NCBI GenBank assembly: GCA_951406725.2
Contig: OX597821.1
Location: 28,768,001-28,832,000, forward strand
Direction of reading: 5' to 3'
DNA: 64,000 bases
Source: Octopus vulgaris
Taxonomy: Eukaryota
Part shown: in pieces, positions 9,424 to 44,923 of the stretch
How the letters are laid out: each line of letters starts with the position of its first letter
How positions within the stretch are numbered: position 1 is the first letter of the stretch
Made by a program: the position numbers and the translations under genes
Notes under the pieces: model-generated
What the model saw: only the letters and a program-made list of their open reading frames with translations
The model's database searches: none
Told to the model about the DNA's origin: nothing

Positions 9424-9620
9424 TACCTATATATATATACATATATATATATATATGGCAAATGAAAAATAGAAGATGGAACGTATGAGAATTTATTATT
9501 CATCACGATTTATATGTATATATATATACACACATATTTATGTATGTATGTATACATAAATATGTGTCTGTGTGTATATATATATATATATATTTATATA
9601 ATTTATATATATATGTATTA

Positions 9621-9975
9621 TATAAAATTATAATTTAGGGTATCTAAGAGATACCACCACGCTGGAAATAGCAGTCAAAATTTGACTCTAAAACCACATT
9701 AAATGTTCGTACAGCACAAAGAGAGAAGACAATGAGACAAATAAACTAGTAATTTTTTTTTATGCTAGTTTATTTTGTCTCTTTGTCATCTTCCTGGTAC
9801 TGTATGAACATCTAATGTGGTTTCTGAGTCAAGTTTTGACTGCTATTTCCAGCGTGGTGGTTTCACTTAGATACCCTAAATTATAATTTGAAATAATTAT
9901 TACCTTTGAAAGGTTTTTATTCCCATTCTGGCCACCTAGATAAGATCGGTATTTAAATATCGATCTTATCCTTAT
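9621..9975 (-). repeat. Foldback element: about 125-bp inverted arms (9625-9749 / 9765-9889) plus a terminal hairpin module, set in (TA)n
   Basis: The arms are reverse complements with scattered mismatches. A short palindrome GATAAGATCG...CGATCTTATC lies at about 9939-9970. Confidence 0.85.
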
Positions 9976-10004
9976 TTATATAAATTTATATATATATAAG
10001 TATT

Positions 10005-14676: not shown

Positions 14677-15172
<496 letters not shown>

Positions 15173-16125
15173 ATATAAGATGTATATATATATATATGAA
15201 TAATTAAGGGTACTAACAGTCAGTACCGGCATGCTGGCATAACAGTCAAAATGGCCAAACCACAAGTTTCATTTAAAAACAAAGGTGGAAGCGAGTAAAT
15301 TAATAAAAATTCTAAGAACCCCGTACCGATTACGAAAATAAACGAAAATGGAAAAATCAGACATGCCCGTGTCACTATGATTTCGAACTCAGAGGAATGC
15401 CCTTAGTTACTCTTCAGCCAGTTTTACTGACACCCACGGTTGTAGAGTTTATTCATCACACCCAATGTGTGCAATGACCGTTTTTAATTCCGCAGAAAAT
15501 TTCCAAAGGTGATCGAAGTGAATAAAAATTTATTTAAATATATCAGGATACTATTGCTTATATATATATATATATATATACATATATATATGTATGTATA
15601 TATTGCTTCATTTGGTAGTATTAACACGTTATCTCCCGTATTACAATTCATATCATTATTACTATTACTGTATTTTTATTTACTATCACTATTATTAACA
15701 TGGCCTTTATTTTATTATCATTATAATATTGGGTGTTATAGTCATTTTCTTTTTTCATTTTCCTTTTGGTCTTGTTCTAACAATATTTATACTTCTATGT
15801 ATTTCTAATATTACATATTTCTATCATGCAGTATTTCTATGAACTGTAAGATAAAGGAAGTCAGGTATCATGCTTTGCATATAAAAGAGAGGAAACTCGA
15901 AAAAATCCGACAGCGTCCATTGGTATTCTTTCTGATGAAGCACCGACACACATTTGTTGCTGAATTATATTTGTTTATACAATTATTCTGCACAGTTTAC
16001 GAAATGATACCTGACGCGAATGTCAGCAGTTTATCGCTGATGTCAGGCGTTGAAACAAATATAAACTTTTATTAAAGCCGGTTTTTTCCATCTTCGTGTT
16101 ATATAAGTTTTTATATTAATCCTAA

Positions 16126-17260: not shown

Positions 17261-17786
17261 TATATTTTGTCAATATAAATTTCAAAGTTTCCAAAAATTC
17301 TGTCCTGTATTTAAAACTTAGTCATTGGGTTTGTCATATTTTGTATAATAGAATTCTTTAGTGGTTCACAAACAAATGTAAGTAAGTGATACGTTTTAGC
17401 TCGTCCGTTCCTTTACTTGTTTCTTTCTGGTGCATTTCGAAGGTGCGGTTTGTTAGACGGGCATCCATAGTGTTGCTACTATTAAAACCATGTTTATCAT
17501 ATGCTTAGATGTTCACAAGAGGATGTGGGTAGTTGGAAAGGTTGTTGGTCTACTGGTTTCTCTCTAGGTGTTCATTGTTGAATAAGTAATTTAGTTAACA
17601 TGAAGACATCTTAACTCTTGTGTGTCATAAGGTAGAGTTTGTGGGGTATGTTTTTATAAATATTCTTTCAGTTCTGTTCAAATGTGGCTATTTTATAATA
17701 TTTTTATTTTAGGCCTTGCTGTGCTTCACTTGTAAAGAAGAACATAGTGATACTCCAGAAAGGTTTATTATCTGTCCCTCAGACAG

Positions 17787-19265
17787 TGTATAACAAGAAC
17801 AGATAAAGTCAAAAGAAGGAAGACCCCTCTACCAGCTCTGCTTGTATAGAAATAAGTTATTACAACATTTAGAATGCTTTACAACTTTTCTTTCGATTCT
17901 ATTGAACAGATTCGCATGCCAGCAATTTCAATTGGACAAATCTAGACGCTAGCTATCTCCACATCTCCCCACCAAAACTGATGCTACACTAAAAGCGTCA
18001 ACAACAAAGTCTCTCTCTCTCTCTCTGGGCCCGGGTGTTTTCTTGTATCGTCTAGAGTTGCCCAGGCCATACTCTGGCACTGGCGGTTTGGTCATGTGTA
18101 GAAGTGGTCTGAGTTTGTGGCTATTCTTCCAGGATCTGCATTGGATGATCAGTCGGATGCTCAGAAATATTGTCCGTCTCTATTCCAGATTAACAGTCCT
18201 CCACAGAAGCGTAGTGCGGGCGTAGCTGTTTCCAGTGTCGTCTCCATACTGGACCATGAAGAAAGACCTTGACGTTGAAGCAGCATGAAGCTGCTTGAGA
18301 AGCGACCACAAGCATCTGCATTGCCATGATCCGCTGTTTTCCGGTACTCAATGATGTAGTCAAACTGTTTCAGCTACAGGGCCCATCGTACTGGTCGGTT
18401 GGCTGCGAAAAGTGGTGTCCCTTCTGGCCAAACAGTACCGTCAGTGGTTTATGATCAGTCACCCGTATGAAATTACGCCCGTACAAGATACTGGTTGAAT
18501 TTCTACAAGCCAGAAATAATCGCTAGGACTTCTTTGTGGATTTGGCTGTAGTTCCTTTCTCCAGACATGAGAATCTTGGACACATTGGCAATTGGACGCT
18601 CGCTTGCATCCGCATAAAGATGAAACAGGACTGCTCCAGTTCCCTGCTGGGCACATCACAAGTCAGTCCTCGAGGTTTGCCTTGCTAGAAATGTACAAGG
18701 ACTTGATCTGAGAATAATACGTTTCTTAATTGTTCAAACGCTGCTTGTTCTTCACCTCCCCACTTCCAGGAAGTTGCCTTCATGTTTAAACGGCAGTAGT
18801 AACCAAGATTGGGATGAACTCCCCGTAAAACTAAACCGAGCCCACGAAAGACTTTAAGGGTAAGAGTTCCGTGGGAGGTGGCATCTTCATGACTGCTTCG
18901 ACCTTGGATCCCTTCGCAATTCCTTCGGCCGATAAGGTATAGTCAAGGTATTCCACATGGCTTGTGCGAACAGGCACTCTCACGATGGCATCTCTATGCA
19001 TCTCCGTCCAAGAGCATTGTCCATACAGATTCCTAGTGTCTGGATAGCGTTTCCGCACAGCAAATTCATGTCAGGAATCTATGTGACTATGTAAGGAATT
19101 GAGCTTTGTTTACCGGTCATTGGATCCTCGGTTTGGCACATAAAAATTCCCAGCCCGGGCCAGTCGGGCTTGCTGGATGGCTCGTAGCGAAGTCTGATAT
19201 CATCCAGCTTCGGTTTTCCTTGTTGTTTCCCGACCAGCAAAGAAACAGAATTTCCAGTATTTGCA
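17787..19265 (-). mobile_element. Ty3/Gypsy LTR retrotransposon remnant (protease, RT C-terminus, RNase H, integrase tail, putative PPT and 3' LTR)
   Basis: VEYLDYTLSAEGIAKGSKVEAVMKMPPP..LKSFVGSV (RT); YGRNFIRVTDHKPLTVLFG...RWAL*LKQFDYIIEYRKTADHGNADA (RNase H); VWRRHWKQLRP (pol C-terminus). Purine run GGTGGGGAGA followed by TGTGG...TATACA (about 17963-17787). Confidence 0.85.
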
Positions 19266-20231
19266 GTAGTTTTCCAGTAGTTCTCTTTTAAATTTATTTG
19301 TTTTGGTGACTTGTAATTTCTTAGTAAGAGCAGACTATCGTCTCTATATAGATCGCCTGAAACAGATAGATATTTGCTTCGTAGCGTTGTCATATGTAAA
19401 GGCCAACGATGTTGCTTACTTCTGCCTAGTCTTGTAATCCCATGCTTATATCAAAATGGTTCTTTAGTGTTTTTTCTTAATCTAGAAAGCATTGCTGTGG
19501 AAGCGGAACAATTTCCTTGCTTGTTTCTATTTAAGTAACGCTTATTGTGGCTTGGGCTTTAGCCAAGTTCAAGCAGCTATAAGAATTGGTTTCGTTATTG
19601 ACCTATAATAAACTCATACGTGGGATCGGAAGAAATTGCATTCATATTTACTCGGGATCTTGTTGAACCAATGTATTATTTCGTGAAGTGTTACTTTAGA
19701 GGGGTAATGTCAATTTTACTTTGATTTTGGGTGAGAATCTGCCTATAATTTGTTTTATTAATGACACCTATGTCCGGTTTCGAAGGATTAATAACTCTGA
19801 CTGATGGATTGCAATTGAAGTTAGGTTTGAGGCCATTCATAGTTAGATATGGATATTTTGTTGCCTATTTTACCATCTACTTTACGGTTAGCAGTCATTT
19901 CTTTGGCTCTGGCGGTTATATCGTTTATACTTTGCTTTTTGTGTGTTTTAGATATTGTGTCAGAAAGAAAACGATTACAAGTGATTTTACTTCCGTGTTT
20001 GAGGGTGTTTGTTTGCTAGATTGTGCGACGAATTGAAGTTAATCAACTCCTCCTAAAATGTAATTACTACTCCACTGAAGCCCACATGTTCAAGGAAGGA
20101 AGATTTTAACTCAATAGAGACGAGAAACGGACAATATTATCTGCAATACGTCCCAATCCGACGATGGCTTAACTGGGCGAAACTTCAACATCACTGTCAG
20201 TGGCATTCTTGTTTAAGAATATATATATATA

Positions 20232-21866: not shown

Positions 21867-22319
21867 GGATCTTTTTGGTTTGAACGGCAGTTTTTTCTAG
21901 CGGTGTCATATGAAATTATCCCCCATAATTATGACCCTAGTGTCGATCTATAGCATTTCGATCTATTTTAGGGTTAGGGTTGGTTAGGGTTAGTTAGGGT
22001 TAGTTAGGGCTAGTTAGAGTTAGGGTTAGGGGGAAGGGTATCTTTTTTTCTTCACAAATGTAAATAAACCCAATCTGTTTCTTAAACTAGGGACATATTC
22101 ATACTGAATGTTTTTTTTATCTCAATAGTGTCAGTGATTGATTGAAATTGCAGAAATTGAAGAAAAAAAACAACAAATATTTTACAAACTATAGAATTTT
22201 CTCAATAAAGCCAAGAGAAAAGGATGTTTTATAAACACATTCTACCAGTATACGAAGTTTAAAATTTTTTAGTTACCTAGAAATTATGTTAAAAACTGCC
22301 GTTCAAACCGAAAAGATCC
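21867..22319 (+). mobile_element. MITE with 29-bp TIRs, 8-bp TSD and internal TTAGGG repeats (Merlin-like)
   Basis: TIRs GGATCTTTTTGGTTTGAACGGCAGTTTTT / AAAAACTGCCGTTCAAACCGAAAAGATCC. Flanks ATGATGTA / ATAATGTA. Confidence 0.85.
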
Positions 22320-43162: not shown

Positions 43163-43716
43163 GGCGGCGAGCTGGCAGAATCGTTAGCACGCCGGGCGAA
43201 ATGTTTAGCAGTATTTAGTCGTTACGTTCTGAGTTCAATTTCTGCCTTACGGGGTCGATTAAATAAGTACCAGTTACGAACTGTCGTCGATATAATCGAC
43301 TTAATCCGGTTGTCTGTACTTGTTTGTCCCCTCTCTGTGTAGCCCCTCGTAGGCAGTAAAGAAATAGGTATTTCATCTGCCGCTACGTTCTGAGTTCAAA
43401 TTCCGCCGAGGTCGACTTTGCCTTTCATCCTTTCGGGGTCGATTAAATAAGTACCAGTTACGCACTGGGGTCGATATAATCGACTTAATCCGTTTGTCTG
43501 TCCTTGTTTATCCTCTCTGTGTTTAGCCCCTTGTGGGTAGTAAAGAAATAGGTATTTCGTCTGTTTTTACGTTCTAAGTACAAATTTCGCCAAAGTCGAC
43601 TTTGTCTTTCATACTTTGGGGGTCGATAAATTAAGTACCAGTTTCGTACTGTGGTTTATCTAATCGACTGTCCCCCTTCCCCAAATATTTCGGTCCTTGT
43701 GACTAGAATAGAAAAG
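43163..43716 (+). mobile_element. SINE family C tandem trimer (one head, three bodies)
   Basis: The body restarts at GGTATTTC(A/G)TCTG at about 43367 and 43551. The last unit carries tail type 2. Confidence 0.88.
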
Positions 43717-44100
43717 GCTTAAGGACATGAAACATTCAAATGGGTCTTATTTTTCGCTAGGTAAAACGAAAAATTTAATGTTTGACTAGGAAAACTTTGG
43801 TGCAAGTCACAGTTCAATACAATCTTTTGACTCTCAGAATCTATGTATACTTTTGTGAGATGATTCAAATATATGAAACGAAATTTATATGTAAATGTGT
43901 GAGTATGTGTGTGTCCGTGCGTGTACGTGCGTGTGTGTTTGATTTACTCCGGCTCGCACACATTTACGCACTCAAACTCACGTGTGTAGATATATATATG
44001 TACACTAAATCATATCGAAGGGAAATGGAAATTGATTAAAATTTTTATTTCTAGTCGCCTAACATGTAAATATTTAGTCCAAAGACAATGTTTTAGTCAG

Positions 44101-44524
44101 AAAATACAGTGTACATTTAAACACGAGGGATCTACTCGTGGGATTCAACACGCTAGAAAGAACAGCTAGGTTCTATAACCACAAAATTGGGGATAAAATT
44201 CGACAGGAACGCAATGAAGAAATAAAAGCATTTTACCATCTAGTATCCTGGACCAATTGGTTTCTGATTTTAGTTTAGCAAGTAAATAACATTTACAGGC
44301 TAGGTGAGGACGATTTCACCTACCCTTTAAATGTTATTTACTTGCTAAACTAAAATCAGAAACCAATTGGTCCAGGATACTAGATGGTAAAATGCTTTTA
44401 TTTCTTCATTGCGTTCCTGTCGAATTTTATCCCCAATTTTGTGGTTATAGAACCTAGCTGTGCTTACTAGCGTATTGAATCCCACGAGTGGATTCCTCAT
44501 GTGTTTAAATGTACACTGTATTTT
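44101..44524. repeat. 424-bp palindrome (arms of about 207 bp, 8-nt loop)
   Basis: 44163-44295 is the exact reverse complement of 44328-44460. The centre reads TAGGTGA-ggacgatt-TCACCTA. Confidence 0.95.
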
Positions 44525-44923
44525 ATGTATAATCAAATATTAATTATAATAAAAAGGTAAAATCAATAATAATTTTACCAGGTGGTCAGTGCGGAAATAA
44601 ATGCCTCATAGGTAGATTTTGTAAAATATTTTATAATTATATACATAATTATGTCAATGGATCGCATTGCAAAAATTAGACGCTAAATCCCTTATTATTC
44701 TCGGAGATTTTAAGGGGCTTTAAAATTTTTATAGGGGCTTCAGCGTCTATTTCTTGCAGTGAGTAGTGAGGCGTAAATTATGTATATAATTATAAAATAT
44801 TTCATATATTTATACACACATACAGACACAATATATACGCATGTGCATATCCCAAAATGTCTCTTTCACTCTTCTCTCTCACTATATGTATATATATATA
44901 CCTATGTGGGTGCGTGCGCTTGT

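Follow-up and report, generated by a model that had tools for sequence, protein, structure and literature searches.

Truncated units with a type I hammerhead motif and a conserved 3' tail in (TA)n sequence of Octopus vulgaris: five families of probable non-LTR retrozymes

Metazoan non-LTR retrozymes are described as short tandem units in which a type I hammerhead occurs (Cervera and de la Pena 2020, PMC7229834); the same kind of element is treated in PMC4209133, and it has been argued that retrozymes derive from Penelope-like elements and are non-autonomous (Li, Clavereau and Pollet 2026, bioRxiv 10.64898/2026.07.22.740005). In published Penelope insertions a 5'-truncated copy lies inverted, and one of the two ends bears a tail (PMC8557442). 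In the anole Poseidon element PAc, the tail is the stretch between two internal start sites of reverse transcription, and the target, AT-rich DNA, is cut on both strands (Frangieh et al. 2024, PMC11167929).

The loci described here resemble PAc in that two predicted internal starts bracket the tail and in the apparent cutting of both strands at AT-rich DNA, whereas PAc is autonomous and has a tail of 30-40 bp inside the start of its ORF and an AC-rich stem-loop as start site; an in-trans test on a non-coding unit was not found in the accessible text of PMC11167929. With the EN+ Penelope-like elements of the Hydra clade (Craig et al. 2021, PMC8557442) they share a canonical hammerhead near the 3' end, the (TA)n target, the tail at one end and the inverted 5'-truncated partner, but their units have no ORF and the sequence of the tail differs. 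Naiad elements, which are reported in Octopus, are alike in the (TA)n target and the inverted tailed insertions, but lack canonical hammerheads and have an N-terminal EN (PMC8557442).

Five families of short non-coding units

The window, by which the whole analysed stretch of 64,000 nucleotides of Octopus vulgaris contig OX597821.1 is meant, is rich in (TA)n and belongs to a genome of 2.8 Gb. A sequence-only reading of the window had described three dispersed copies of a single non-coding mobile family, each beginning with a terminal hairpin and continuing through a TGGYCAG word and, in two of the three, a small stem to a long inverted repeat. The hairpin, the word and the small stem are all present where they had been placed, and the three copies are members of three different families. 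When each copy, and each of two additional sites with the arm motif, is used in a genome search, a separate family of many copies comes up in every case: F1 (copy 1), F2 (copy 2), F3 (copy 3), F4 (44008-44527) and F5 (15199-15537). Further genomic copies with the originally described order of modules were found for every family. The first-look candidates number 2428, 2172, 263, 1607 and 195 for F1 to F5, of which the best 40 were scored in each family; the totals are distinct from copy numbers. Among the ten pairs of families, compared by blastn with one reference unit each, there is a lone match of 21 nt. The arm motif had been reported to recur at 9658, about 15230 and about 44150, and it is present at all three positions, of which the second belongs to F5 and the third to F4. 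The parts of the window are as follows.

9618..9752 (approximate start), minus strand: F1 inverted 5'-truncated arm of copy 1, with a short (tail-less) end in (TA)n and the arm motif at 9658
9762..9889, plus strand: F1 5'-truncated arm of copy 1, hammerhead lost through truncation, arm motif at about 9835-9856, short-end site at 9889
9890..9987, plus strand: F1 tail of copy 1, with small stem 9902-9914, YTRRCCAYY motif 9928-9937, hairpin 9939-9970 and a long end in (TA)n
14862..15061, minus strand: F2 arm of copy 2, with a short end in a long (TA)n
15061..15179, plus strand: F2 inverted partner of copy 2, a 54-nt piece (the 45-bp arm of the earlier reading) joined to a tail with decayed small stem, motif 15134-15142 and hairpin 15143-15170
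15199..15537, minus strand: F5 near-complete unit, head to short end, with hammerhead motif at about 15372-15421 and arm motif at about 15230
44008..44307, minus strand: F4 tailed arm, with decayed tail 44011-44101 (stem 44077-44086, motif 44052-44062, hairpin from 44021) and arm motif at about 44150
44305..44527, plus strand: F4 inverted arm, stopping at the short end, with hammerhead remnant 44305-44377
44534..44660, minus strand: F3 tailed arm of copy 3, with stem 44604-44612, motif 44580-44589 and hairpin 44556-44579
44665..44790 (approximate limits), plus strand: F3 inverted arm of copy 3 with a short end, previously read as an imperfect hairpin

The arms of copy 1 are 85% identical over the self-inverted alignment. 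Internal deletion of the stem II region breaks the hammerhead of the F2 arm (by eye against intact copies), the cleavage triplet of the F5 motif is altered (also by eye), and the F4 remnant lacks the 5' strand of stem I. Copy 3 adjoins the F4 element, whose tail had been overlooked, and not a clean (TA)n run. The window also holds a short TTAGGG-like array (21968-22031) and a tandem repeat of 2.3 copies of 184 nt (43245-43669).

Successive tails are spaced 406-561 nt apart, which corresponds to units of approximately 410-560 nt. The sequence past the tail enters the head of the same unit in 15 of 25 F1 loci, and head-to-tail junctions of this type are also present in F2 (5), F4 (7) and F5 (10), 22 in total, and at a single F3 locus (L058). 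In one unit per family, the GC content is 0.30-0.32 and the longest ORF beginning with methionine has 29-81 aa; the ORF with RT and GIY-YIG that is a feature of autonomous Penelope-like elements is absent from the units. Among the sampled copies there are truncated and inverted ones and partial tandems, and no long multimer array is apparent among the fetched loci. Read on the hammerhead strand, a unit consists of head, hammerhead, a stretch of about 130-180 nt containing the arm motif (conserved as sequence across families) and CCCT, the short end, the tail and the long end. Circular folding gives z values of -4.9 for F1, -2.7 for F2, -2.5 for part of the F4 unit and +0.29 for F5, whose fold is thus no better than shuffles (40 shuffles each). 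No run recorded as RNA was among those listed for expression, and the F2 unit is covered by contigs from 4 of 24 runs whose RNA nature is guessed, a result that shows neither transcription nor circles.

The hammerhead motif was detected with a descriptor comprising stem I, CTGANGA, stem II, GAAA, a palindromic stem III and UH (type I). It was found in the longer copies of all five families, on the strand opposite to that of the first reading, and because of this orientation the hairpin, which had been taken for a 5' terminal module, is a 3' tail. The motif is present at 15 of 24 F2 loci, 8 of 24 F4 loci (a second F4 scan gave 9, which includes two matches from neighbouring elements and misses one locus), 5 of 24 F5 loci, 1 of 25 F3 loci and 1 of 35 F1 loci; F1 and F3 copies are mostly truncated before the hammerhead, and 13 of 25 F1 loci have it when loci are chosen by the head. 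The descriptor matches none of 2640 shuffled loci. Rfam gives no match at the gathering score in the window, no hammerhead included, and on 8 loci it gives no hammerhead and only sub-threshold matches, mostly of miRNA models on microsatellites; the hammerhead call therefore depends on the descriptor used here. Readings as an HDV-like ribozyme or a SECIS element, as these are usually defined, were dropped by eye, since the pairings or motifs that they need are absent.

Short tandem units that lack an ORF and contain a type I hammerhead motif are the basis for identifying the families as retrozymes, so that the elements, for which no name had been known, have one among described classes (PMC7229834). 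As far as the published descriptions extend, they agree with metazoan non-LTR retrozymes in being short, low-GC (30-32%) and non-coding, in having one type I hammerhead motif and head-to-tail joining, and in their occurrence in a genome with autonomous Penelope-like elements. The differences are that the F units are 406-561 nt long and the published ones approximately 170-450 nt, that the F copies are truncated, inverted or partial tandems while long arrays are described for the others, and that circles and cleavage have been shown for the latter, whereas the F families are known from sequence alone.

Two fixed 3' ends and the tail between them

The ends were mapped at 132 loci (137 fetched, less 5 duplicates), aligned to one unit per family; the loci were picked by likeness to the window copies, a choice which favours copies reaching these ends. 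Of 255 segment 3' ends, 93 lie at a short site, 119 at a long site and 43 elsewhere, which places 212 of the 255 within windows that make up 10-13% of the unit length. The two sites flank the tail, the long site being 77-95 nt beyond the short one (30-40 bp is the tail length in the papers). A TA flank is present at 149 of the 212 ends, a figure inflated by the AT-rich short end itself, and target duplications are unreadable within (TA)n. Among 84 back-to-back pairs, the combination of a long with a short end is the most frequent (53), followed by long with other (15), long-long (7), short with other (6), short-short (2) and other-other (1); three convergent pairs were found beyond these.

A less biased sample of 29 F1 loci was selected by the tail alone, with the window copy excluded (three overlap earlier loci and one is the reference). 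It contains 21 inverted, 6 single and 2 tandem loci, and 16 of the 21 inverted loci combine a long with a short end (read from the output). The 5' end of the tailed arm ranges from position 65 to 371 of the 489-nt unit; there is no fixed arm length, and 8 of the 29 loci have no inverted arm. Since both the arm ends and the pairing are variable in this sample, the palindrome is a scar and not a module. The long inverted repeat, whose arms differ between copies, accordingly loses its place as a fixed module, and its inclusion in a recognised fold is unsupported as it was written. The description of the copies as non-coding and mobile, inserting at AT-rich sites with Penelope-type signatures, is borne out by the mapped ends, the inverted pairs and the tail-selected F1 sample: the inverted pairs with one long and one short end, together with the truncated 5' ends, match the published pattern of Penelope insertions.

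At L461, L464, L470 and L472, and in the window at 44305-44307, the arms of the inverted pair start at nearly the same unit position, a fold-back-like arrangement; in other inverted pairs the arm starts are 50-140 nt apart. The idea that 5' ends mark hammerhead cuts was rejected for F1, where there is no clustering at the predicted cleavage site; in F3 there is a weak excess of starts near the cut (9 of 44 in the next 25 nt).

The tail, on the hammerhead strand, consists of the small stem, a U-rich linker, YTRRCCAYY, a hairpin starting with G, and CT, and the distances of the short and the long end to the two stems are the same from family to family. A family-independent descriptor (stem, linker, YTRRCCAYY, hairpin, CT) detects 51 distinct tails in F1-F5 loci, 29 of them with the small stem, and one in an unrelated locus; 200 shuffled windows contain 3 matches, none with the small stem. 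Copy 2 alone among the window copies satisfies the strict descriptor, the rest being decayed. In an alignment of 34 tails, 88.5% of the cells are paired, compared with 79.2% when shuffled and 31-58% when slid. Double changes are seen in 38 cells, against 8.7 in shuffles, and 11 of the 38 come from 6 misaligned F4 rows. The covariation is thin: the alignment represents five lineages only, and the 6 pairs that show double changes do not exceed shuffles in number (219/500). In the family-anchored comparison, pair 2 of the hairpin is A-U in F1, F2 and F5 and G-C in F3 and F4, pair 6 is G-C, A-U or U-A, and pair 7 is G-C in F4, pairs 1-4 being partly fixed by the search patterns. Single intact tails fold with z of -1.35 to -3.3. 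The earlier proposal that fold rather than sequence is recognised thus stands to the extent that the stems covary between families, and falls for YTRRCCAYY and the arm motif, which are kept as sequence.

Beyond the loci used to train it, a model of the tail located tails with variant motifs in 4 loci, one of which is a distant relative of F4. Tailed elements with variant motifs found with the model lie at L290:6037-6139, L292:7803-7899, L293:7724-7818 and L295:3819-3907. In F1, F2 and F5 heads (L426, L035 and L240), TTCACT is seen by eye 20-30 nt past the long end, and in the F1 head TATATAAA about 33 nt upstream of it; we take these to be a possible initiator and TATA respectively.

No paper title or abstract was found that describes the tail or the families; Repbase and Dfam were outside the comparison, so that an existing name is possible. 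A conserved tail with two fixed ends is absent from the accessible text of PMC7229834, the word "tail" has 0 occurrences in that of Li et al., and the five F1-F5 tail motifs have 0 exact matches in the available PMC8557442 supplement, searched on one strand, where line breaks may hide some. Relative to these sources, what is new here is a long conserved tail fold with two fixed ends, common to five families and to further ones.

Penelope-like elements of the same genome

The window contains a decayed Hydra-type RT fragment at 19384-19858 on the minus strand (by eye, about 19300-20200), which adjoins a decayed pol fragment at about 17300-19300 that we take from its motifs to be Ty3/Gypsy-like, and there is a short match to the endonuclease end of a Hydra-type protein at 16-132 on the minus strand (E 2e-5). 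From the Hydra-type fragment, young Hydra-type families were reached whose open frames span 500-700 aa, and intact Hydra- and Neptune-type elements are present in the genome. A protein search with the decayed 151-aa piece found nothing, and Pfam assigned no significant family to 5 intact Hydra-type ORFs.

An intact Hydra family has 16 hammerhead positions: after 7 of them comes a short end, after 6 a long end that lies about 72 nt further on, and after 2 the ORF, while the remaining one is cut off. The two ends thus lie about 72 nt apart around two hairpins, falling (by eye) before the first and after the second, in the same geometry as in F1-F5. At metagenome Hydra-type loci (L327-L403) a hairpin RCTC...GAGYRC is found 38-55 nt after the hammerhead cleavage site in 18 of the 25 with enough flank, it occurs twice, repeated before the start codon, in 9 loci, and the genomic Hydra family bears a variant of it; it is likely to be the Hydra clade's own start signal. 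RCCAYT follows this hairpin in 1 of the 18 loci. A word like YTRRCCAYY ends the published Hydra-2_Amil consensus (noticed after the fact) and lies ahead of the second hairpin in L329 and L343, but it is not clade-wide. F1-F5 differ from the Hydra clade in having about 130-180 nt between hammerhead and short end and a different first stem, and the likeness in two-hairpin, two-end geometry is accompanied by no sequence or model match at the 3' end. The tail model has one match (E 3.1) among 77 metagenome Hydra-type loci, and in 89 genomic loci no Hydra- or Neptune-type copy has a match at its true end.

A second group of candidates is a family with a 781-aa protein and many open copies (L282-L286, L290), presumably Neptune-type by its motifs. 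Its 3' UTR repeats hold CCAAT, TGACGTCA and YTRRCCACCT together with a degenerate hammerhead, and we take CCAAT and TGACGTCA to be boxes. A flank in L288 matches the terminal part of the published Naiad_Obim consensus (judged by eye).

Copies joined to an RT ORF as its own end were not found. The 10-kb stretches next to two one-armed F1 copies hold no ORF, and 40 Hydra-type and 20 GIY-YIG stretches contain only independent F insertions and no ORF-linked tail. In the old Hydra-type family to which the window fragment belongs, the end is formed by a remnant of a hammerhead some 130 nt ahead of (TA)n, and the motif is missing there. An F1 piece behind a Hydra ORF (L202) was rejected as that element's end, since none of 24 other copies share it (by eye). 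An F-type inverted pair is fixed in the 3' UTR of a young intact Hydra-type element (L187:6255-6490, plus strand). This passenger, composed of the arm motif and a decayed tail, occupies the same place in L188-L190, L195-L197, L206 and L226, gives 8 tail-model matches, and is 98-100% identical in 40 of the 40 scored genomic matches (1104 candidates); it is a captured retrozyme scar that has spread along with its host, and not a case of mobilisation.

Because no autonomous element ending in an F tail was found, the helper partner is unproven. A member of the Hydra clade is on balance the favoured helper, since target, hammerhead style and geometry agree, as distinct from homology; Neptune or Naiad elements are the alternatives.

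Competing explanations and a possible copying route

What is observed directly consists of the units, their junctions, the hammerhead motif, the two 3' ends, the ragged 5' ends, the inverted pairs and the (TA)n flanks. These observations are very probably explained by truncated copies of non-LTR retrozymes of five families, likely copied by Penelope machinery into (TA)n, with the 3' tail as the likely start signal. The conserved tail is itself probably a signal for reverse transcription. By the features tested, the F elements are non-LTR retrozymes and not autonomous Penelope elements, and their sequence suggests that they work like a Penelope 3' end.

If the copies were instead solo 3' ends (pseudo-LTRs) of unsampled autonomous Penelope-like elements and not independent units, then inverted and tailed scars of the same kind would be expected, because truncated Penelope copies leave them in the published account (PMC8557442), and an element of this type could have escaped the genome searches, which covered the best-scoring candidates, with Naiad and Nematis ends unsampled. 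However, what follows the long end is the head of the same unit at the F1, F2, F4 and F5 junctions counted above, and no ORF in the units exceeds 81 aa; F3, with its one junction, contributes little here. This makes the solo-end explanation quite improbable. A fixed terminal or subterminal inverted repeat is a feature of MITEs and HINEs, and the layout of a single inverted repeat with an extra terminal hairpin at one end does resemble that of a HINE, which would suggest non-autonomous DNA transposons (MITE-like or Helentron/HINE-like) with a preference for (TA)n. Such an origin is largely refuted, and its probability is very small: arm length is variable, the inverted arm is missing from 8 of 29 tail-selected F1 loci, long-long and short-short pairs occur, 5' ends are ragged while 3' ends are fixed, and the hammerhead motif and head-to-tail units are present.

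It is also conceivable, though unlikely, that the elements are retrozymes in which YTRRCCAYY and part of the tail act as a DNA promoter for the next tandem unit while AT-rich sequence sets the ends, a role that is not exclusive with one in RNA. This would fit the occurrence of YTRRCCACCT beside the presumed boxes of the Neptune-type repeats, the TTCACT past the long end in three families with its upstream TATATAAA in F1, and the fact that inverted repeats covary alike as RNA or DNA. The equality of the end-to-stem distances in all five families is evidence against it, as are the Hydra-type ends, which also flank two hairpins, and the Neptune repeats, in which the motif has no following hairpin.

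For truncated retrozyme copies made by Penelope machinery, the following course may be proposed. Partial tandems would be transcribed, and the hammerheads would cut the transcripts to monomers, which may circularise (a putative step, after the accessible account in PMC7229834). An autonomous Penelope-like element would supply the RT and the GIY-YIG endonuclease for copying; its protein would probably bind the final 150-250 nt of the unit (arm motif and tail) and would cut both strands of AT-rich DNA. Reverse transcription would have two alternative internal starts in the RNA, one preceding the small stem and the other following the big hairpin. One cDNA per cut strand, or a fold-back of the first, would be linked 5' to 5', giving a palindrome in which one end has the tail and the other lacks it, and read-through of a unit junction would leave partial tandems.

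A more tentative extension is that the last 150-250 nt (arm motif, stem, YTRRCCAYY and hairpin) might form a parasite-specific RNA landing pad, kept across a whole radiation of retrozyme families, which recruits the Penelope protein in trans without sequence homology to autonomous elements and sets both RT start sites; this is doubtful at present, and if it were true, another RNA to which the pad was attached would become a template that is inserted into (TA)n by the two-strand route.

In the literature as far as accessible, the use of Penelope machinery by retrozymes has been argued from co-occurrence and pseudo-LTR phylogeny, whereas in the F insertions the Penelope signature of tail and inversion can be read directly. 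Comparing the families reduces the likely cis signal to a short RNA that can be mutated and for which two start sites are predicted. Since the genome also has a candidate helper that is young and intact, what a Penelope RT recognises and how tails and inverted copies form become testable in the published in vitro assay. For annotation of the octopus genome, the consequence would be that thousands of unexplained palindromes are insertion scars, and neither MITEs nor structured RNA genes.
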